DNA of 42,411 nucleotides from Acidimicrobiia bacterium. Its GTDB lineage: Bacteria > Actinomycetota > Acidimicrobiia > Spongiisociales > UBA4744. Position 1 is the first letter of the stretch. Each line of letters opens with the position of its first letter. The DNA is taken from assembly GCA_024763085.1 (NCBI GenBank), contig JANTGE010000002.1, forward strand, positions 1 through 42,411. Direction: 5' to 3'. A program made the translations under genes and the position numbers. The notes under the pieces were generated by a model. The model searched no databases. It had not been told where the DNA came from and saw only the letters and a list, made by a program, of their open reading frames with translations. Below are positions 27,868 through 38,050 of the stretch, one piece after another.

Positions 27868-28953
27868 CTACACGAACCGGGCCGGGTCGAGTCGCGTCGC
27901 ATCGACGCCCTCCGGGGTCTCGGTGATGAGACCTGCGGCGGTTTGTGCCATCGCCGGCGAGGTCATGATGCCGAACCCGCCCTGACCGACCAGCCAGAAG
28001 AACCCGGGTACCTCGGGATCCCAGCCGACCACGGGCTTGCGGTCCGGAGCAAAGGTGCGCAGCCCCGCCCACGCGGTCTTGACATGACGGATGTGCATGG
28101 TCGTGGCCTGCTGGATCCGGTCGATGGCGATGGCGACGTCGATCTCCTCGTGGCGGACGTCACACGGCTCCATGGGGGTTTCGTCGCAGGGTGAGGCGAG
28201 GAGCATCACTCCGTCAGGCTTGAAATAGAAGGACTCTTCAACGTCGATGACCATCGGCTGGCCGCTCATGTCCACAGGCGGCTGGAACGTGAAGGCGGTG
28301 CGTCGCAGGGGCGTCAGCCCGAGCGGCCGGACGCCGGCCAGGGCGGCGATCTGGTCGGCCCAGGCGCCGGATGCGTTGACGACGACGGGAGTCTGGATGG
28401 TCCCGTCGGCAGTCTCGACGGTCCAGGCCGTGTCGTGGTGTAAGCCGGTGACCTCGGCGTTGGATCGGACCTGTCCGCCTCGCCGGCGGAGACCGCGCAG
28501 GAAGCCCTGGTGCAGGGCGTGGACGTCGATACTCATGGCACCTGATTCCAAGAGTGCACCAGCCAGATAGTCGGGATCGAGTACCGGACATAGCTCGATG
28601 GCCTCTGACGTCTCGATGCGCTGCAGAAGCCGTGCCGATCGTCCGAGTTCCTCTTCGAGGAGCCGGAGCTGATCCTCTCTCGCGATGAACATCACCGGCA
28701 GCGGCGTCAGGATCGGCACGTCGGTGAAACCCTCAGGGGGATGTTCGAGGAATGGCCGGCTGGCCCTCGTCAAGGAGCGGACGTCATCGCTCTCATACGC
28801 CTCGGTGAACACCGCAGCGGAACGGCCGGTCGTGTGATAGCCCGGCACCGCCTCCCGCTCGACGACGACCACCCTGCCATGGGCGGCGAGCTCAAAGGCA
28901 ACCGAGGCGCCGGCGATCCCGGCACCGATGACGACGAAATCGGCGGCCTCCAT
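27868..28953 (-). CDS. FAD-dependent oxidoreductase (DAO / glycine-D-amino-acid oxidase-like)
   Basis: The N-terminal dinucleotide fold DFVVIGAGIAGASVAFELA...VVVVERE, then TTGRSAAV and a DAO-like C-terminus. Confidence 0.9.
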   Translation of the reverse strand: MEAADFVVIGAGIAGASVAFELAAHGRVVVVEREAVPGYHTTGRSAAVFTEAYESDDVRSLTRASRPFLEHPPEGFTDVPILTPLPVMFIAREDQLRLLEEELGRSARLLQRIETSEAIELCPVLDPDYLAGALLESGAMSIDVHALHQGFLRGLRRRGGQVRSNAEVTGLHHDTAWTVETADGTIQTPVVVNASGAWADQIAALAGVRPLGLTPLRRTAFTFQPPVDMSGQPMVIDVEESFYFKPDGVMLLASPCDETPMEPCDVRHEEIDVAIAIDRIQQATTMHIRHVKTAWAGLRTFAPDRKPVVGWDPEVPGFFWLVGQGGFGIMTSPAMAQTAAGLITETPEGVDATRLDPARFV

Positions 28954-29082
28954 GGCGGCATCCTATTTCCCCTGCAGGTCTGACGGCGGTGCGGTAGGGC
29001 GCGAGGGCTATGACTACCGGTCCCGCTCCGACACGATGCGCCCTCACGTGGGGCTCGTCGGAGCGTGTAGCCAAAGGGGCCC

Positions 29083-29562
29083 TCAGTCGTCGGGGCGACG
29101 CACGTAGCTGCTGGCTCGCAGGTATCGACCCTCGGACCGGATCATCATCCCTTCGTCCACCATCTCCCGGCGAAGGGTGGCGACGTCGGTGTGGTATCGA
29201 CCAAGGATCGCGTTCACCTCGGCCTCCGAGTAGACCTGCTGCGGGGCAAAATCTTCGAGGAGACGTTCGAGCACGAACACGCGCTTCTTCCGTTGCGCCG
29301 GGATGGACTCCAGTCGTCCGTCCTTGAAGAACGCCCGTTCCGTGGTTTGCCGTTTCGAGGAGCGGTGCTGGTTGGAGTACCGCTCCAGCCAGGACATGAG
29401 TTCGTGAGCAGCGACTCGCCACTCTTTTCCGATCTTGTAGCCAGGGAGCTCTCCCGATCGGAGCTTCCGGAGTACCACCTGCTGGTTGAGTTTCAGCTTT
29501 TCGGCGACTTCTTGCGAGGTGAGGAAGTCGATGTCACGGATGTTGTCGCCCATGATCGGCAC
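29083..29562 (-). CDS. Excisionase-type HTH DNA-binding protein fused to a DUF2087-like domain
   Basis: LTSQEVAEKLKLNQQVVLRKLRSGELPGYKIGKEWRV is a helix-turn-helix_17/excisionase-like motif. The C-terminal FFKDGRLESIPAQRKKRVFVLERLLEDF...EAEVNAIL resembles DUF2087. Confidence 0.7.
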   Translation of the reverse strand: MPIMGDNIRDIDFLTSQEVAEKLKLNQQVVLRKLRSGELPGYKIGKEWRVAAHELMSWLERYSNQHRSSKRQTTERAFFKDGRLESIPAQRKKRVFVLERLLEDFAPQQVYSEAEVNAILGRYHTDVATLRREMVDEGMMIRSEGRYLRASSYVRRPDD

Positions 29563-29593
29563 TATAGAGGACGATGCATGATGATGTGATACT

Positions 29594-29944
29594 TTATGGC
29601 AGCGCAGCGGCGATGATGGCGGCCGCCATGTCGGGGTCCGGCACCGACAGCACTACGCGGGCGTACTTCCAGCCTTCGGTGTCGATCACCAGTAGCTTTT
29701 CCCGACGGACTGCCGCCCAGAACTGGGTGGCGTCGCCGACTCCGTAGAGCCCGTACCGGGCGACTCCCGGCAGGTGCGTGCCGAGCTTGCGAAACAGCGA
29801 CCCGTAGGGGACCTCGTTGCGTTTGACCGAGCGCACCGAGGTGATCGTCTCGATCGGGATGGAGAGACGGTGCCGGAAGGCCAGGAGGGTCTCTATCGGC
29901 GATAGCGTGACGGTGACTGTCTGCAGATCGGTCTCGATCTTCAT
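29594..29944 (-). CDS. Hypothetical protein (possibly bacterial PH-like fold)
   Basis: 116-aa ORF with good codon bias, 10 nt downstream of the APH-like gene. No motif recognised with confidence. Confidence 0.55.
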   Translation of the reverse strand: MKIETDLQTVTVTLSPIETLLAFRHRLSIPIETITSVRSVKRNEVPYGSLFRKLGTHLPGVARYGLYGVGDATQFWAAVRREKLLVIDTEGWKYARVVLSVPDPDMAAAIIAAALP

Positions 29945-29953
29945 GCCTGAAGC

Positions 29954-30928
29954 CTAAGCCCAGGTGTCGAGAAACGATCGCAGCCGTTCGAACGCATGGT
30001 CGAAGAAGTCGGTTGGGCCGTCGTCCATGTTGAGGACGAAGTTGATGAACATGACGGTCCGCGCCGCCATGAATTGTTCGAGTTGCCCCGGGTACTCCAC
30101 CGGCCATGGCGCCACCGTCCGGTATCCCTCCTCGAAGGCAGCCCGCAGCGCCGGATACCGCGGGTCGGACCTTCCGTAGAAGAGGGTGATGGCCACATCC
30201 TGCACCGGATGGCCCCACGCGACGTCTTCGAAGTCGAGGGCGATCATGCGGTTGCGGTAGACGTGGACGTTCCACATGTGGAGGTCGGCGTGGATGATCT
30301 GGGCGCCGCCGGGATCGAGCCTCGCGTAGGCGGGTTCGACGGCGGCGATCGTGCGCTCGAGGAGTTCGAGACGGTCTCCGGTGAAGTGATGGGCATGTTC
30401 GGGGAGTCGGTAGACGATGGGATCGGTCGGCCAGTAGAAGACCGTGTCCATCGCCATGGGCCGGCGAGGGGGCTGGAACGTCGCCCCGTGGAGGTGGAGG
30501 CGGGCCGACAGGCTCCCGAGTCGCCGGTACTGGGTGGGCGTCATGTGGTCTTCGAGAGGGCGTCCAGGGATCCATTCGAACAGGGTGCATCGTCGTGCCC
30601 CCGGGACACCGACCGCTTCCTCCCGGACGAACGGCTCGCCCGACCGGGCGTGTACCAGCCTGACGACGTCCAGGTCGGTGTCGTTCGCCAGCGCGTCGAG
30701 CCAGGCTGCTTCGACCTCGGCGCTCTCGTCCGGATGTTCCTGGAGATAGTCGATCCTGAGCGCCAACGGCCCATCGGCCGTGTCGACACGGAAGATGGCA
30801 TTGGTGAATCCACCGACGAGACGAAGGCGGAGGGGCTCGAGGTCGTAGTGTCGCAAAGCTGCCAGTGCGAGCGGTCGAAGCCGGCGGAACTTCCCTGCCT
30901 CGGTGAGTTGTTCCCAGCGCTTTGCCAT
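29954..30928 (-). CDS. Aminoglycoside/choline-kinase-type phosphotransferase (APH family)
   Basis: Brenner/catalytic loop IIHADLHMWNV and DFED metal-binding motif. The N-terminal lobe has GGFTNAIFRV. ATG 30928 chosen over the longer track start. Confidence 0.85.
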   Translation of the reverse strand: MAKRWEQLTEAGKFRRLRPLALAALRHYDLEPLRLRLVGGFTNAIFRVDTADGPLALRIDYLQEHPDESAEVEAAWLDALANDTDLDVVRLVHARSGEPFVREEAVGVPGARRCTLFEWIPGRPLEDHMTPTQYRRLGSLSARLHLHGATFQPPRRPMAMDTVFYWPTDPIVYRLPEHAHHFTGDRLELLERTIAAVEPAYARLDPGGAQIIHADLHMWNVHVYRNRMIALDFEDVAWGHPVQDVAITLFYGRSDPRYPALRAAFEEGYRTVAPWPVEYPGQLEQFMAARTVMFINFVLNMDDGPTDFFDHAFERLRSFLDTWA

Positions 30929-30993
30929 CGGGCAAGCGTAGACGCATGGACGTTGTGCGAGTCTCCGCCTGGCCGACCGGTAGGGTGTCCGAC

Positions 30994-31548
30994 ATGGCAT
31001 TCATCCAGACCTCCGACGACCGGGAGTGGGACGGGCAGCTCGGGGAGCTACGGGCCAAGGTGGTCGACCCGAGATACGGGCGGGTCGACCACATCATGTC
31101 GATCCACTCCCTCGACCCGGAGAGCATGCGAGTCCACCTGGACCTGTATCGGCAGGCAATGCGCAGCACCAAGACGCTGCGCAAGGTCGATCGGGAGATG
31201 ATCGCTCTCGTCGTGAGCCAGATCAACGACTGCCACTACTGAGTGACTCATCACCGGCGCGGGCTGCGCCGGCTGCTGAAGGACGACGAGCTTCTCGGTC
31301 GGATCGAGACCGATTTCGAAACGGCGGGCCTGGAGGAGCGCCGGGTGGCGATGCTTCGGTTCGCTGCAAAGCTGACCCGCACTCCATCGGAGATGACCCG
31401 GGCCGATGTCGACAACCTGCGAGACAATGGGTTCTCCGATCGGGACGTCCTCCATGTCACCGAGGTCGTCGCCTACTACGCCTACGCCAACCGGATCGCC
31501 GACGGCCTCGGGGTGGAACTGGAGCCGTGGATTCCCGACGACGATTGA
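30994..31548 (+). CDS. AhpD-like / carboxymuconolactone decarboxylase-family 'peroxidase-related enzyme' containing an in-frame TGA (31240-31242): candidate selenoprotein (CxxU) or nonsense pseudogene
   Basis: Track ORFs 30922..31242 and 31243..31548 share one frame and are separated only by TGA. The joined product reads ...REMIALVVSQINDCHY[TGA]VTHHRRGLRRLL...DVLHVTEVVAYYAYANRIADGLGVELEPW. This matches the family block N-x-C-H-Y-C-V-x-H-H, with TGA at the second Cys. Confidence 0.6.
31254..31272 (+). promoter_or_regulatory. SECIS-like hairpin candidate 11 nt downstream of the in-frame TGA
   Basis: CCGGCGC (31254-31260) / GCGCCGG (31266-31272) form a perfect 7-bp stem with loop GGGCU. The spacer from UGA is GUGACUCAUCA (11 nt). 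GC-rich hairpins can also arise by chance at this GC content. Confidence 0.3.
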
Positions 31549-31614
31549 GCCGGCGCCCCGATTTTGGTGGGAGGCATCTCCAGACCAGCATCCGGACCGA
31601 CCAGAGGTGCTCTG

Positions 31615-32355
31615 ATGAAGCTGTGGAAACGCCTGCTGATCGGCCTCGCGGTGGTGTTCGTGATCGCTGCGGGTGCCTTCGTCGTGTGGGGACTCAACCC
31701 ACTGCCGGCTATGCCCGAGGCGCTCGCTGCCCTCGCTCCGGACGATATGGTCATGGTCACCGAGACGCCGTGGCTGGAGTTCGCGCCACGGGACCAGCAT
31801 CCGACGATCGGGTTCGTCCTCTATCCCGGCGGCCATGTCGACCCCCGTGCCTACGCTCCGCCGGCCCGGGCGATCGCCGAACATGGCTACCTCGTAGCGA
31901 TCCCTCCGATGCCGTTGAACCTGGCGGTGCTCGCCCCGGGGCGGGCGGCGTCGGTGATGGAGGCCCATCCCGAAATCGACCGGTGGGTCATCGGCGGCCA
32001 CTCGTTGGGAGGAGCCATGGCGGCCAACTTCGCCTACCGGCACCCCAACGCGGTCTCGGGGATCGTCCTGTGGGCCTCCTATCCGGCAGGCTCCAACCCT
32101 CTCGGTGATCTGGATCTGCCGGTGCTCTCGATCTATGGAACCGAAGACATGGGACTCGACGGCATCCTCGCGAACCGTGACCTGCTGCCGGCAGACACCG
32201 AGTGGGTCGTCATCGACGGAGGCAACCACGCCCAGTTCGGCTGGTACGGCGACCAACCTGGCGACAACGAGGCGCTCATCTCCAGAGAAGAGCAGCAGCA
32301 GCAGATCATCGAGGCGACCATACGACTCCTCGAAGCGATGGAGGCTGCGTCATGA
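31615..32355 (+). CDS. Membrane-anchored alpha/beta hydrolase
   Basis: N-terminal TM (LLIGLAVVFVIAAGAFVVWG). Nucleophile elbow GGHSLGG. ATG 31615 with AGAGGTG RBS. Confidence 0.85.
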   Translation: MKLWKRLLIGLAVVFVIAAGAFVVWGLNPLPAMPEALAALAPDDMVMVTETPWLEFAPRDQHPTIGFVLYPGGHVDPRAYAPPARAIAEHGYLVAIPPMPLNLAVLAPGRAASVMEAHPEIDRWVIGGHSLGGAMAANFAYRHPNAVSGIVLWASYPAGSNPLGDLDLPVLSIYGTEDMGLDGILANRDLLPADTEWVVIDGGNHAQFGWYGDQPGDNEALISREEQQQQIIEATIRLLEAMEAAS

Positions 32356-33200
32356 ACCTGAAGGATGCGTCGGTGGTCATCACCGGATCCACCCGCGGCT
32401 TCGGTCGAGCCACGGCGCAGGTGCTGCACGATCGTGGCGGGCGGGTTGTGGTCTCCGGACGTCGACAAGAGGATGTGGACCGGGTGGTCACCGAGCTCGG
32501 GGAACCGGCCGCCGGACTGGCCTGTGATGTCTCCGACGCCGACCAGGTGTACGCGCTGTCCCGGTTCGCCGTGGAACGGAACGGGCGCATCGACGTGTGG
32601 ATCAACAACGCAGGCGTGTCGCCGCTCCCCGGAGCCGTGCTCGACTTTCCGCCGGAGACCGCCGAAGCGGTCTTCCGGGTCAACTGCCTCGGCACTCTGC
32701 ACGGAACTCATGCCGCGATGCACCACATGAGACAACAGGGGAGCGGCACGATCGTCAACCTCTACGGACGGGGCAGCGACCTGCGCCCAGCGTCGCCCTC
32801 AGGCCTGTATGGAGCGACCAAAGCGTGGATCACCTCGTTCACTCGGACGTTCGCGGCCGAATATGCAGATCTTCCGGTGCGCATCATCGGGTTCAGCCCC
32901 GGGATGATGACGACCGACATGCTGGCCGTCGACCAGGTAGTCGGTCGGCGTATCGTCGAGACCATGCGGCGCTTCCCGATGGCGCTGGAGGCGCTCGGTA
33001 CTCCCCCGGAGGTGCCGGCAGTCGAACTCGCCGACCTCCTCGAACGATCCGAGAAACGATTCGTCGAATACCGGCAGATGCGCGGCTTGCGCAAGGCGCG
33101 CATGCTGGCACGGCTCATCTGGATGGGCATGAACAAGCGGGCACGCCCTCCGGAAGCCACCTTCGAGGTTTTGCCACCCTACGAGCCGCCTGTGGGCTGA
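32352..33200 (+). CDS. SDR-family oxidoreductase
   Basis: VVITGSTRGFGRA (TGxxxGxG), NNAG and YGATKAW (YxxxK). ATGA overlap with the hydrolase stop. Confidence 0.9.
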   Translation: MNLKDASVVITGSTRGFGRATAQVLHDRGGRVVVSGRRQEDVDRVVTELGEPAAGLACDVSDADQVYALSRFAVERNGRIDVWINNAGVSPLPGAVLDFPPETAEAVFRVNCLGTLHGTHAAMHHMRQQGSGTIVNLYGRGSDLRPASPSGLYGATKAWITSFTRTFAAEYADLPVRIIGFSPGMMTTDMLAVDQVVGRRIVETMRRFPMALEALGTPPEVPAVELADLLERSEKRFVEYRQMRGLRKARMLARLIWMGMNKRARPPEATFEVLPPYEPPVG

Positions 33201-33286
33201 GCCGCTCCATGACGCCTCCCCTGGCACGAACCGCGCGGCGACCCGATTTGGGATAACGGCCTCGCCTGGACCACCATGCCCTCCCG

Positions 33287-33898
33287 ATGTTCCGTCGAAC
33301 CCTCCTTTCCCTACTGGTGGTAGCGCTCGCGCTGGCCGGCACCGGGGTGGCGCGCGCCGACCTCGAAGTGCTGCGGTCGGATGACGCCGCCTACGTCGAC
33401 GACCTCGTCACCTTCGGCTATGACAACGGCCGGCTCCCCGACGTGCTCCTCGTCGATGTCGAAGGCAGCCAGGGGGAGTGTCTCCTCGAGGCGGAGGCAT
33501 CTCGCTGGTGGCTGCAACTCGTCGACGCCGCGGCGGCCGATGGGGTGCAGATCGAAGCGGCCTACTGCTACCGCAGTCTCGCCTCCCAACGGCAGACGTA
33601 TGTCCGCAACTGCGGCTCGCTCCACGCTCCGCAGAGCGCCTGCAACAAGGCGACGGCCACCCCGGGCAGGTCGAACCATGGTTGGGGCCGCGCCATCGAC
33701 GTCACCTCGAACGGGGTGCAGTTGAGCTGCCGCAGTGAGGCATTTGGGTGGCTGGCGGAGCACGGAGCCGACTACGGGTGGGTACTTCCGTTCTGGGCCG
33801 TGTGCGGCGGCGATTCACCGGAGCCGTGGCATTGGGAATGGGGCGGCATCGAGATCATCGAGCCGCCGGTGTTTCCGATCGGGATGCAGCCCCGCTAG
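33287..33898 (+). CDS. Secreted M15-family D-alanyl-D-alanine carboxypeptidase (VanY-like)
   Basis: Signal peptide, then SNHGWGRAIDV (SxHxxGxAxD) and EPWHWEW motifs of M15B/VanY peptidases. Confidence 0.85.
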   Translation: MFRRTLLSLLVVALALAGTGVARADLEVLRSDDAAYVDDLVTFGYDNGRLPDVLLVDVEGSQGECLLEAEASRWWLQLVDAAAADGVQIEAAYCYRSLASQRQTYVRNCGSLHAPQSACNKATATPGRSNHGWGRAIDVTSNGVQLSCRSEAFGWLAEHGADYGWVLPFWAVCGGDSPEPWHWEWGGIEIIEPPVFPIGMQPR

Positions 33899-34628: not shown

Positions 34629-37600
34629 CTACGAACAGCCGGTGGTGTCCCCACAGTTGAGGCACTTGTAGCAGGTGCCGTTGCGGATCGTGATGTGGCC
34701 GCAGGTCGGGCAGAGCGGGGCGTCTCCCATCATGTCGGACAATGCCGCCTGGACCGATGCCGTCGCGACGTCCTTCGTCGCCGTCACGGCAACCGTCTGC
34801 TTCGCCGGTGCTTCGACCACCGCCGCCGGGGTTCCCGGGCCGTGGCCGGGAGCGTCGGCGAAGCGGGCCGCTTCGGCCTGGGCCTCGATGTCTGCCTCCA
34901 TCGCTGCCTCGGTCAGGTCGAGTTGCACGCCGGCGTCGACGGCGAGACCCTTCGGCGGCTCGGGCAGTTCGCTCTCTTGCGGCTTCACCTGAACCAGGTC
35001 GTCCCGACCCAGGTACTCGAGTCCGAGCGCCCGGAACACGTAGTCCACGATCGAGTTCGACATCTTGATGTTCGGATGTCCCTCCACCATGCCTCGTGGT
35101 TCGAACGTCTGGAAGGTGAACGTGTCGACGAACTCGCTCAGCGGCACCCCATATTGGAGGCCCTTCGACACGGCGATGGCGAAACACGACAGGATGCCTC
35201 GCAACGTCGCGCCTTCTTTGGCCAGGTCGATGAACACCTCGCCGAGGGTGCCGTCGGCATATTCGCCGGTGCGGAGGAACACCTTGTGGCCGCCGATGCG
35301 TGCCTCCTGGGTCCACCCGCTGCGCCGAGCCGGCAGCAGGAAGCGCGGCGGACGCATCCCCTGGGCGTACGCCTGCGTCGGAGACATGCCGGCGGGGATC
35401 TGGCCCCACGCGATGTGCTTTTCGGTCTCCAGCGCCTCCGTCACCTCGGGCAGTTCGTCCTCTTCGCCACCGTCGTCGCTCGATGCCGACAACGGCTGAG
35501 ACGCCTTCGACCCGTCCCGGTAGAGGGCCATCGCCTTCAAGCCGAGATCCGCGGACATCATGTAGGCGTTCTCGATCTCTTCGATCGTCGCCTCGTTCGG
35601 CATGTTGATGGTCTTCGAGATGGCACCGGTGATGAACGGCTGCACCGCGGCCATCATCTTGATGTGGCCCGTGTAGTGGATGAACCGCTCTCCATGCTTG
35701 CCGTTGCGGTTCGCGGTGTCGAACACCGCCAGGTGCTCCGGACGCAACCTGGGCGCCCCCTCGATCGTCTGGTAGCCACAGATCACGTCGTTCGCTTCGG
35801 TGATCTCCCGGCGGGAGAAACCCAGTTCGGACAGCAGGTCGAAGTCGAACGCCGTGTAGTCCTCCGGAGACAGGCCGATCGCCTGCAAGGCCTCTTCACC
35901 GGTGACGAACACGTTGAACGCGTGGCGCAGTTCGAACACGCTCGGCAGCGTCGCCTCGATGCGGTCGATGACCTCGTCGGTCAGGCCCTTGTCTCGCAGG
36001 CTTTCCCGGTTGATGTGCGGCGACCCGTCCAGCGACGACGTGCCAACCACGTAGGTGACGATCTCGTCGATGTCCTGCTCCGAGTAACCGAGCCTCCGCA
36101 GCGCCGGGGCGATCGACTGGTTGGCGATCTTGAAGTAGCCGCCACCGGCCAGCTTCTTGAACTTCACCAACGCGAAGTCCGGTTCGACGCCGGTCGTGTC
36201 GCAATCCATCAGCAGACCGATCGTGCCGGTCGGTGCCAGCACGCTCACCTGCGCGTTGCGGTAGCCATGGTGCTCGCCCATGCGCAGCGCCTCGTCCCAG
36301 GCAAGCCGGGCCGCGTCTCGCAGCGGGGCAGGGCACAGGTCCTGGTCGATTCCGAGCACCTGGTGGGAAATCTGCTCGAAGTCCGTCTCGCCGTAGGCGG
36401 CCCGACGGTGGTTGCGGATCACCCGCAGCATCGAGTCCCGATTCTCCGAGAACTTCGGGAACGGCCCCAGCGCGCCGGCCAGTTCGGCGGACGTCCGGTA
36501 GGCGATGCCGGTGAGGATCGCCGTCAGGGCGCCGGCGATGGCCCGGCCGTCGTCTGAGTCATATGGGTAGCCGGATCGCATCAGCAGCGAACCCAGATTT
36601 GCGTAGCCGAGTCCCAGTGTGCGGTAGTCGTACGAGCCGCGGGCAATCTCCTTCGATGGGAAGTGCGCCATCGTCACCGAGATCTCCAGCACCATCGTCC
36701 ACAGGCGGATGGCGTGTTCGTACGCCTCGATGTCGAACCGTCCCGTTTCGTCGTCGTAGAACTTCACGAGGTTGAGGCTCGCCAGGTTGCAGGCGGTGTC
36801 GTCGAGGAACATGTACTCGGAGCAGGGGTTGGATGCCCGAATCTCTCCGCCCGCCGGGCAGGTGTGCCACTCGTTGATCGTCGTGTGGAACTGCATGCCC
36901 GGGTCGGCGCATACCCACGCCGCGTCGGCGATCTGGTTCCACAGATCCCGGGCTTTCACCGTCTTGCGGACCTTGCCGGTGGTGCGTTCGACGAGGTCCC
37001 AGTCGCCGTCGTTCTTCACTGCGTCGATGAACGCCTGGGTGGCGCGCACCGAGTTGTTCGAGTTCTGTCCCGACACGGTCTGGTACGCCTCGCCGTTGAA
37101 GTCGGCCGGGAGGCCGCCGTGCTGGATGAGGACCTTGGCCTTTTCCTCCTCGAGCTTCTTCCAGTTGATGAACTCCTCGATGTCCGGATGGTCCATGTCG
37201 AGGATCACCATCTTGGCGGCGCGACGTGTCGTCCCGCCCGACTTGATGGCGCCGGCAGCCCGATCGCCGATTTTGAGGAACGACATGACGCCAGAGCTCT
37301 TGCCGCCGCCCGACAGCGGTTCGCCTTCGGCCCGGATCGCGGAGAAGTTCGAACCGGCGCCGGCACCGAACTTGAAGAGGCGGGCTTCCCGAACCCACAG
37401 GTCCATGATGCCGCCTTCTCCGACGAGGTCGTCCTTGACGCTGTTGATGAAGCAGGCGTGGGGGGCCGGGTGACTGTACGAGTCGGGGGAGGGAACCACC
37501 TCGTCGGTCTCCGGATCCACGTACCAGAATCCCTGTTCGGGGCCGGTCAGTCCATACGCCCAGTTGAGGCCGGTGTTGAACCACTGGGGACTGTTCGGCG

Positions 37601-38009
37601 CCGCCATCTGGTGGGCCAGCATGTACTTGAGTTCGTCTTCGAAGTTGCTGGCGTCCTCTTCCGAGGCGAAGTAGCCATTCGTCTCGCCCCAGTGCCGCCA
37701 GGTTCCGGCGAGACGGTCGAACACCTGCCGGGCCGACCGTTCCGGGCCGAGGACCGGGCTGCCGCCGTCATCGAGCATCGGGTTGCCGTCGTCATCGAAC
37801 TGAGGCACGCCGGCTTTACGGAAGTACTTCGACACCATGATGTCGCCGGCGACCTGAGACCAGTCGGCCGGTATCTCGGCTCCGGTCATCTCGAACACGA
37901 TCGAGCCGTCCGGGTTGGTGATACGGGTGTCCCGTCGCTCCCACTCGATGCCTTCGTAAGGATCGGCGCCTGCAAAACGGCGGGTGATGCGCAGCCCGTC
38001 TCCACTCAT
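34629..38009 (-). CDS. nrdJ: Adenosylcobalamin-dependent (class II) ribonucleoside-diphosphate reductase with C-terminal Cys-rich zinc-finger tail
   Basis: Typical NrdJ blocks (DPYEGIEWERRD, NSPQWFNTG, SNPCSEYMFLDDTACNLASLNL, ISKTINMP) and tail CPTCGHITIRNGTCYKCLNCGDTTGCS. ATG 38009 preceded by GGAGGGAG (5-nt spacer). Confidence 0.97.
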   Translation of the reverse strand: MSGDGLRITRRFAGADPYEGIEWERRDTRITNPDGSIVFEMTGAEIPADWSQVAGDIMVSKYFRKAGVPQFDDDGNPMLDDGGSPVLGPERSARQVFDRLAGTWRHWGETNGYFASEEDASNFEDELKYMLAHQMAAPNSPQWFNTGLNWAYGLTGPEQGFWYVDPETDEVVPSPDSYSHPAPHACFINSVKDDLVGEGGIMDLWVREARLFKFGAGAGSNFSAIRAEGEPLSGGGKSSGVMSFLKIGDRAAGAIKSGGTTRRAAKMVILDMDHPDIEEFINWKKLEEEKAKVLIQHGGLPADFNGEAYQTVSGQNSNNSVRATQAFIDAVKNDGDWDLVERTTGKVRKTVKARDLWNQIADAAWVCADPGMQFHTTINEWHTCPAGGEIRASNPCSEYMFLDDTACNLASLNLVKFYDDETGRFDIEAYEHAIRLWTMVLEISVTMAHFPSKEIARGSYDYRTLGLGYANLGSLLMRSGYPYDSDDGRAIAGALTAILTGIAYRTSAELAGALGPFPKFSENRDSMLRVIRNHRRAAYGETDFEQISHQVLGIDQDLCPAPLRDAARLAWDEALRMGEHHGYRNAQVSVLAPTGTIGLLMDCDTTGVEPDFALVKFKKLAGGGYFKIANQSIAPALRRLGYSEQDIDEIVTYVVGTSSLDGSPHINRESLRDKGLTDEVIDRIEATLPSVFELRHAFNVFVTGEEALQAIGLSPEDYTAFDFDLLSELGFSRREITEANDVICGYQTIEGAPRLRPEHLAVFDTANRNGKHGERFIHYTGHIKMMAAVQPFITGAISKTINMPNEATIEEIENAYMMSADLGLKAMALYRDGSKASQPLSASSDDGGEEDELPEVTEALETEKHIAWGQIPAGMSPTQAYAQGMRPPRFLLPARRSGWTQEARIGGHKVFLRTGEYADGTLGEVFIDLAKEGATLRGILSCFAIAVSKGLQYGVPLSEFVDTFTFQTFEPRGMVEGHPNIKMSNSIVDYVFRALGLEYLGRDDLVQVKPQESELPEPPKGLAVDAGVQLDLTEAAMEADIEAQAEAARFADAPGHGPGTPAAVVEAPAKQTVAVTATKDVATASVQAALSDMMGDAPLCPTCGHITIRNGTCYKCLNCGDTTGCS

Positions 38010-38050
38010 GGGTACTCCCTCCAATATCTTCTTCTACAACCGGCCTCAAA

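Follow-up and report, generated by a model that had tools for sequence, protein, structure and literature searches.

We analysed a 42,411-nucleotide stretch of DNA from an Acidimicrobiia bacterium (contig JANTGE010000002.1; hereafter the window), in which positions 30994-31548 most probably form a single gene that encodes an AhpD-like (TIGR01926/COG2128) thiol-selenol oxidoreductase of 184 residues and has the active site Cys-His-Tyr-Sec, where Sec is selenocysteine specified by an in-frame TGA. We put the probability of this reading, which draws on comparative sequence data, at roughly 0.9. An earlier examination of the letters and open reading frames (ORFs) of the window (the sequence-only reading) had noticed two same-frame ORFs split by one TGA, with a read-through product of about 184 amino acids, and had proposed Sec recoding in preference to a TGC-to-TGA nonsense mutation or a sequencing error. 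The ORF arrangement is there in the sequence, and the proposal is strongly supported by the TGA in 81 of 82 orthologous copies and by selection. Further support comes from synonymous constraint and compensatory changes in a hairpin downstream of the TGA, the putative selenocysteine insertion sequence (SECIS), from the match of its loop to that of Escherichia coli fdhF and from selA or selB beside two orthologues. The features of the gene are as follows.

30994..31548, + strand: complete coding sequence of the AhpD-like (TIGR01926) predicted selenoprotein, 184 codons, from the translation, the TIGR01926 match and the N-terminus aligned with that of locus L084; start ATG at 30994, internal UGA (putative Sec) as codon 83, true stop TGA at 31546-31548 (translation)
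31231..31242, + strand: predicted redox motif C-H-Y-U, with the Cys codon TGC at 31231-31233 and the putative Sec codon TGA at 31240-31242
31240..31242, + strand: in-frame UGA, predicted to be read as selenocysteine; TGA in 81/82 orthologous copies, TGC in L023
31254..31272, + strand: candidate SECIS hairpin, stem 31254-31260 / 31266-31272, conserved core 31255-31260 / 31266-31271, apical loop 31261-31265
31263, + strand: loop variant, G at SECIS position 24 (synonymous GGT to GGG); U in 78/80 relatives and in E. coli fdhF
31546..31548, + strand: genuine stop of the gene, also TGA, with no hairpin 3' of it (ORF list, translation)

An in-frame TGA in an AhpD-like gene

The ORFs 30922..31242 and 31243..31548 share one frame and are parted solely by the TGA at 31240-31242. 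Translated from the ATG at 30994, the joined product has 184 amino acids; its N-terminus, MAFIQTSDD, pairs in the alignment with MAYIETFDD of the closest relative, L084, and its active-site block reads QINDCHY[TGA]VTHHRRGL, within the wider context ...VVSQINDCHY[TGA]VTHHRRGLRRLL.... We scored the joined protein with Cys placed at the TGA column. It matched the Pfam family CMD (PF02627; E 7.7e-13, score 48.7 against a cut-off of 23) and the NCBIfam family TIGR01926 (peroxid_rel, 'peroxidase-related enzyme'; 138.7 bits against a cut-off of 81.8), the latter over residues 23-175. Because the TIGR01926 match crosses the TGA, neither half is a domain by itself and a single domain spans the stop; the sequence-only reading had likewise held that neither half was a complete domain.

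In Cys-form homologues (CHYC or CNYC), the TGA column is the second Cys of the CxxC motif. The CxxC motifs of the Protein Data Bank (PDB) entries 3c1l (INHCYYCLTAH) and 2pfx (INKCFYCLVAH) align with C-H-Y-[TGA], and the stop therefore falls on the second redox Cys. This is exactly where the sequence-only reading had put it, with homologue alignment named as the way to check; the alignment bears it out, PF02627 and TIGR01926 both matching. Among solved structures, 3c1l (Mlr4105, E 6e-30), 2pfx, 2oyo and the AhpD entry 6k40 matched over residues ~25-175 with E values from 6e-30 to 3.5e-20. In all four the CxxC aligns with C-H-Y-U, with Cys carried instead of Sec. They also lack the HHRRGLRR block that follows the TGA (e.g. 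CLTAHGAAVRQL), a block specific to the Sec clade and a few Cys derivatives. Two further families proved to be other subfamilies: the window protein scored far below the cut-offs of NF041238 ('AhpD_rel_CFYUT' alkylhydroperoxidase-related (seleno)protein, ~357 amino acids; 46.7 against 175 bits) and of the Mycobacterium tuberculosis-type AhpD (TIGR00777; 19.9 against 191.95 bits). Both share with it the CMD/AhpD fold, in which the same helix bears a redox motif of the CxxU or CxxC type.

Scanning species-representative genomes yielded 535 confirmed relatives, and codon data were taken from the best 80 of these 535 loci, which hold 82 copies. These loci have 60-77% protein identity and come mostly from Acidimicrobiia metagenome-assembled genomes (MAGs), the hosts including Acidimicrobiales, Microthrixaceae, Candidatus (Ca.) Poriferisodalis and Ca. 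Aldehydirespirator. At the Sec column, 81 of the 82 orthologous copies had TGA and one, in L023, had TGC. Every further metagenomic copy whose DNA was read (L084-L089 and L091-L101) had TGA as well, and in the closest relatives (L084-L088), which stem from five independent sequencing runs, the TGA was accompanied by a GGTCT loop. In an anchored codon alignment of 80 copies, the Cys at -3 was invariant (80/80) and the TGA was present in 79/80, and on either side of it amino acids were conserved while their codons varied. Codon comparison indicates that both halves of the gene are under purifying selection: between the window and L084 the ratio of non-synonymous to synonymous substitution (dN/dS) was 0.12 upstream and 0.16 downstream of the TGA, at a dS of ~0.6. 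In the same codon alignment the gene's own terminator was TGA in the window and in 68 of the 80 orthologues; TGA still ends the gene there, and therefore it has not been reassigned. Inspection of orthologous loci for a TGA with a covarying hairpin, as opposed to TGC, had been suggested by the sequence-only reading, and the relatives showed just this, with a single TGC.

Some loci carried the gene twice or in unexpected company. At L048:7097 and L048:11099, two TGA-containing copies lie 4 kb apart, and L046 and L056 are found on one contig (CBDEFI010000006.1) as two TGA-containing copies ~12 kb apart; each of these copies has a canonical hairpin. The MAGs of eight loci (L013, L016, L023, L029, L041, L053, L074 and L080) are labelled Kiloniellaceae, Pirellulaceae, Planctomycetaceae, Gammaproteobacteria or Acidobacteriota. 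Their genes are 62-67% identical to that of the window, within the Acidimicrobiia range, and seven of the eight have the same TGA and hairpin, L023 being the TGC form. The non-Acidimicrobiia labels could reflect mis-binned contigs or horizontal transfer.

The hairpin downstream of the TGA

Eleven nucleotides (31243-31253) separate the TGA from a perfect 7-bp stem, CCGGCGC (31254-31260) paired with GCGCCGG (31266-31272), that encloses the loop GGGCU; counted from the U of UGA, the hairpin occupies positions 15-33. The sequence-only reading had described this 7-bp stem at this distance, and in the window it is present as described. Among the relatives, however, conservation is confined to the inner 6 bp; the seventh pair, at the outer end (15-33), forms in only about half of them. 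The apical loop is GGGCU in the window and GGUCU in nearly all relatives.

Across the 80 aligned copies, the codons for R-R-G-L-R at +5 to +9 are nearly frozen (CGG in 73, CGC in 78, GGT in 78, CTG in 79 and CGC in 69). Codon entropy at these five sites is 0.10-0.61 bits, compared with ~1.0-1.9 bits for Arg, Leu and Gly elsewhere in the gene; GGT is the rarest Gly codon elsewhere, yet stands in 78/80 copies in the hairpin. Pairing in the stem is kept as well, with 92% of cells paired against 21-53% when the partners were slid. Two core pairs show compensatory changes: pair 18-30 is GC in 60 sequences, GU in 6, AU in 2 and CG in 2, and pair 21-27 is CG in 69 and UA in 1. Pairs 17-31 and 20-28 are invariant.

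The sole broken closing pair in the alignment belongs to the sole TGC sequence. Three Cys-form genes (L023:10247, L102:3247 and L103:3361, encoding proteins P0004, P0006 and P0008) make up one clade and are the only TGC forms found. Two of the three no longer have the hairpin, the changes falling exactly on synonymous sites that Sec forms keep frozen; L103, for instance, reads GGA TTG CAG. The pattern is consistent with a single Sec-to-Cys conversion in this clade, followed by decay of the SECIS.

Three other loci depart from the common pattern. At L020:10247 and L022:2561 (Acidimicrobiaceae MAGs SB0675_bin_16 and SB0668_bin_28), HHRSGL in place of HHRRGL puts an A-G mismatch inside the SECIS stem, and both retain the TGA. 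At L090:3706-3708 (GCA_024275815.1, JAJRYI010000263.1; protein P0010), the Sec column holds a real TTA (Leu), one base away from TGA, and the hairpin is intact despite the TTA, with a compensatory pair (cgTcgc/gcgAcg). This TTA may reflect a base-call error or a mutation that arose very recently, or the variant may be inactive.

The minimal SECIS of E. coli covers positions 15-31, lies 11 nt from the UGA and has conserved U17, G23 and U24 (PMC8659212). The family consensus GGUCUGC is identical to G22 G23 U24 C25 U26 G27 C28 of E. coli fdhF and lies at the same distance from the UGA, with G23 and U24 both in the loop. As in the fdhF element, the window hairpin starts 11 nt after the UGA, and it agrees with the description of a ~17-nt hairpin. 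The two elements differ in build: the family stem is G+C-rich and its 5-nt loop is closed by C-G, whereas fdhF has a GGUC tetraloop closed by A-U, and we saw no conserved lower stem in the family hairpin, unlike in fdhF. Judged by sequence, the family element probably works like the fdhF SECIS without being a copy of it.

By analogy with the E. coli model, the messenger RNA hairpin at 31254-31272 would act as a bacterial SECIS once the ribosome arrives at the UGA at 31240-31242. It would display its G-rich apical loop at positions 22-26 from the U of UGA, and the C-terminal winged-helix domains of SelB, in complex with GTP and Sec-tRNA(Sec), would bind it, so that Sec is inserted and selenium incorporated in place of termination. 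At the second TGA (31546-31548), where there is no hairpin, translation would terminate. The hairpin RNA at the same time codes for the invariant H-R-R-G-L-R-R, and its codons are therefore under a double constraint. The AhpD of M. tuberculosis attacks with Cys133, the second Cys of its pair, as the nucleophile and resolves with Cys130. Replacing the second CxxC Cys, Sec may likewise serve as the nucleophile of a C-x-x-U centre with a peroxide or an oxidised partner protein as its target, the first Cys resolving the selenenylsulfide; the product would then have peroxidase or reductase activity.

We also scanned the open frames of the window and of 1.3 Mb of fetched loci for other recoded genes with the pattern TGA, 6-bp stem and GG[TG] loop. 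The 39 non-AhpD candidates obtained were rejected because all resemble out-of-frame Arg/Gly-rich noise, and within the window the scan found only the TGA at 31240. Looking for further TGA-split genes through third-position G+C gave too much noise in sequence of 65% G+C.

Selenocysteine machinery and competing explanations

Machinery for Sec insertion was found next to two orthologues. At L012:3955-8987, selA, selB, a topoisomerase IB gene and the AhpD-like selenoprotein gene follow one another on one strand, with the sel genes within 1.3 kb upstream (selA, TIGR00474, 496 bits; selB, TIGR00475, 323 bits), and at L003:667-2308 selA lies directly downstream of the orthologue. L012 and L003 were the only loci with tblastn matches to SelA or SelB, and SelD matched nowhere in the window or the fetched loci. 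The other fetched loci (78/80, together with L084-L101) had no sel genes within the stretches covered, up to 10 kb on each side and less on short contigs. SelB homologues with SelB winged-helix domains are abundant in Actinomycetota MAGs. Within the class Acidimicrobiia, selA, selB, selC and selD have been reported in all 84 complete Actinomarina genomes, and the Sec machinery has been described as universal in Actinomarinales (bioRxiv 10.64898/2026.04.03.716425). The genome from which the window comes would be expected to carry selA, selB, selC and selD too.

Several observations weigh against Sec decoding at the window's TGA. No tRNA-Sec, selA, selB or selD lies within the 42-kb window: ARAGORN detected no tRNA-Sec in the window or any fetched locus, and no tRNA at all in the window; Rfam found ordinary tRNAs only on the nine loci searched; and tblastn with SelA, SelB and SelD of E. 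coli and SelA and SelB of L012 gave no match in the window. The window hairpin folds at -20.7 kcal/mol, against -16.7 +/- 2.8 for shuffled sequences (z = -1.42), and 16 of 200 shuffles were as stable; taken by itself, it is not beyond chance in DNA of 65% G+C, and its significance comes solely from the comparative data. No Rfam family matched, either in the whole window at gathering thresholds or in 31180-31340 at E <= 10 beyond a chance match to FsrA (E 5.7). Bacterial SECIS elements are poorly represented in Rfam. The bulged U17 of the E. coli element is missing: position 17 is a G throughout the family, invariant in 80/80 aligned sequences and paired with C31 in all 71 distinct sequences. 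Finally, the window has G24 for U24, a position conserved in E. coli (PMC8659212), and among the 79 other aligned sequences only one (L069) is alike.

The last point bears on whether the window copy is decoded as well as its relatives. Its loop retains G23 and differs at G24 from the consensus GGUCU, which 78/80 copies share. We scanned metagenome contigs for the variant hairpin, allowing TGA, TGC or TGT at the column, and found it in 11 contigs. All 11 had TGA and none TGC or TGT, and the part of the gene present on each contig had no stop or frameshift. Their local sequences are varied (IQHH, IVHH, VTHH, VVHH, VIHH, LTHH, IIHH and IAHH). This recurrence with a maintained Sec codon argues, without proving it, that the G24 variant is functional. 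It is nevertheless conceivable that the family is a selenoprotein family while Sec decoding is poor or absent in the window copy, because the change from U24 to G weakens SelB binding or because the machinery has been lost, and mostly a truncated product is made. U24 is a conserved SECIS position in E. coli and is U in 78/80 aligned sequences, including all closest relatives, and there are no sel genes in the window; set against this are the 11 further metagenomic copies with G24, all with TGA and uninterrupted frames in varied sequence types, the G24 of L069, and the lack of relaxed selection in the C-terminal half relative to L084, although a recent loss would not yet show there. We regard poor decoding of the window copy as quite unlikely. 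A more speculative idea, which we hold only tentatively and consider less probable than not, is that SelB of this clade recognises a SECIS of simpler build, made up of a G+C-rich stem of 6 bp without a bulge and a GGNCU loop. The E. coli rules for U24 and the bulged U17 would then not hold, and the window's G24 would be a fully functional natural variant. Since the hairpin also encodes the invariant HHRRGLRR, that peptide could be conserved partly for the sake of the RNA. If so, HHRRGLRR would be a case in which the fold of an RNA has set a protein motif in hundreds of species. The recurrent G24 variant offers a natural test of how SelB recognises the loop.

The remaining explanations dispense with Sec altogether. 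TGA is one step from TGC, and with the window hairpin alone not beyond chance, a nonsense mutation or a base-call error might be supposed to have left an 82-residue truncation and a downstream half that is decaying or non-functional. The same TGA in 81/82 orthologous copies from different species refutes this at the level of the family; in addition, the downstream half has a dN/dS of 0.16 and no frameshift, the hairpin is held at synonymous sites, and the closest relatives, from five independent sequencing runs, likewise have TGA, which makes such an accident in the window extremely improbable. Nor do we give any real credence to a split gene in which translation stops at the TGA and restarts by translational coupling at GTG 31243, yielding two polypeptides in one fold. 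A GTG does follow the TGA immediately in the window, and gene callers predict a 101-amino-acid ORF there, but a possible start (ATG, GTG or TTG) follows the TGA in only 24/79 orthologues, the others having ATC, CTC, GTC, ACG and so on, and a stop and restart is therefore ruled out; the break would also cut the catalytic CxxC motif and leave the conserved hairpin and the synonymous constraint unexplained. Decoding of the UGA as Trp, Cys or Gly, through genome-wide reassignment or near-cognate read-through independent of a SECIS, is suggested by the W at the Sec column of the database proteins P0001, P0002 and P0027. The DNA of P0001 (L089:859-861, a JGI metagenome, short contig), however, has TGA, and under table 11 the locus does not give the deposited protein; its W therefore comes from a gene caller's code table with TGA as Trp. 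As TGA is a true terminator in the window and 68/80 orthologues, and the SelB-type hairpin and the adjoining selA and selB point to Sec, we consider decoding as another amino acid very unlikely and retain the reading of the UGA as selenocysteine.

Family context, annotation and neighbouring genes

The window gene is a further member of a selenoprotein family that has been described since 2005 (Zhang, Gladyshev and co-workers). From the Sargasso Sea, 27 sequences of the AhpD-like protein (COG2128, CxxU) were reported and recognised as a new selenoprotein family (PMC1088965). In the Global Ocean Sampling (GOS) data it ranked fourth in abundance among prokaryotic selenoprotein families, its Sec forms numbering 299 and its Cys homologues 902 (PMC2398784). 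A table in a 2026 review lists 'AhpD-like protein, TIGR01926, CxxU' (PMC13188914), and the family has its own BSepDB page (PMC13326102). The statement in the sequence-only reading that AhpD-like selenoproteins are a known class was thus right (PMC1088965, PMC2398784, PMC13188914). The window gene shares with this family the Sec at the second CxxC residue and a downstream SECIS with a loop G, and there is no essential difference, the window copy coming from a high-G+C Actinomycetota genome and having the G24 loop. The Sec form is near-fixed in the clade of the window (81/82), whereas in GOS overall Cys homologues are three times as numerous as Sec forms (902/299). Ever since the Sargasso Sea and GOS work, AhpD-like CxxU proteins have ranked with the most abundant selenoprotein families of prokaryotes, and the biological gain from one more is small. 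We consider modestly noteworthy the near-fixation of Sec in an Acidimicrobiia clade, the uniform SECIS that overlaps HHRRGLRR, the recurrent G24 variant and the large scale on which the gene is annotated in truncated form.

The sequence-only reading had expected automated annotation to split the gene, and this is what the databases hold. A protein search gave 416 homologues at E <= 1e-10; among the best 120 clusters, ~90 were C-terminal fragments of ~101 amino acids that cover the C-terminal 43-55% of the query, and all 17 fetched fragments begin (M/V)-x-HHRRGL, that is, at the codon right after the TGA. Most public entries for the clade are such 101-amino-acid C-terminal fragments named 'peroxidase-related enzyme', and some carry an artefactual Trp. 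Unless the genes are rejoined, counts of selenoproteins, antioxidant genes or pseudogenes in Acidimicrobiia MAGs, which include those of sponge symbionts and Microthrix relatives, will be misleading. The uniform SECIS (CGGCGC-GGUCU-GCGCCG, 12 nt after the UGA) can serve as a convenient marker for the Sec trait in these genomes.

The genes elsewhere in the window are of ordinary kinds. They encode a two-component system, a lysyl-PG synthase-like protein, ABC transporter components, a nitrilase-family protein, an M19 dipeptidase, a methyltransferase, a TipAS/MerR regulator, and EamA, DAO, HTH/DUF2087 and APH proteins; besides these and the AhpD-like gene, there are genes for an alpha/beta hydrolase, a short-chain dehydrogenase/reductase (SDR), VanY, a class II ribonucleotide reductase (RNR), AsnA and a zinc-dependent alcohol dehydrogenase (zinc-ADH). 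Synteny extends between 27868-33898 of the window and L084:2351-4869, in the order methyltransferase, TipAS/MerR, EamA, DAO, AhpD-like and VanY. In the window the AhpD-like gene is flanked on either side by additional genes: HTH/DUF2087, a 116-amino-acid ORF and an APH-family kinase at 29083-31000, and the alpha/beta hydrolase and SDR at 31564-33200. With its longest start, the divergent APH-family ORF (29954..31000, - strand) overlaps the start codon of the predicted selenoprotein, the overlap being 7 nt long; initiation of the APH gene at a later Met is probable and would leave a short divergent promoter region. The class II (B12-dependent) RNR (34629-38024, - strand) is 74-81% identical to proteins of Actinobacteria and Acidimicrobiia MAGs, which puts the window in the vicinity of these groups. 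It has no intein, and several of its relatives (78-83% identity, 1514-1559 amino acids) contain intein/LAGLIDADG domains (PF14528, PF14890).

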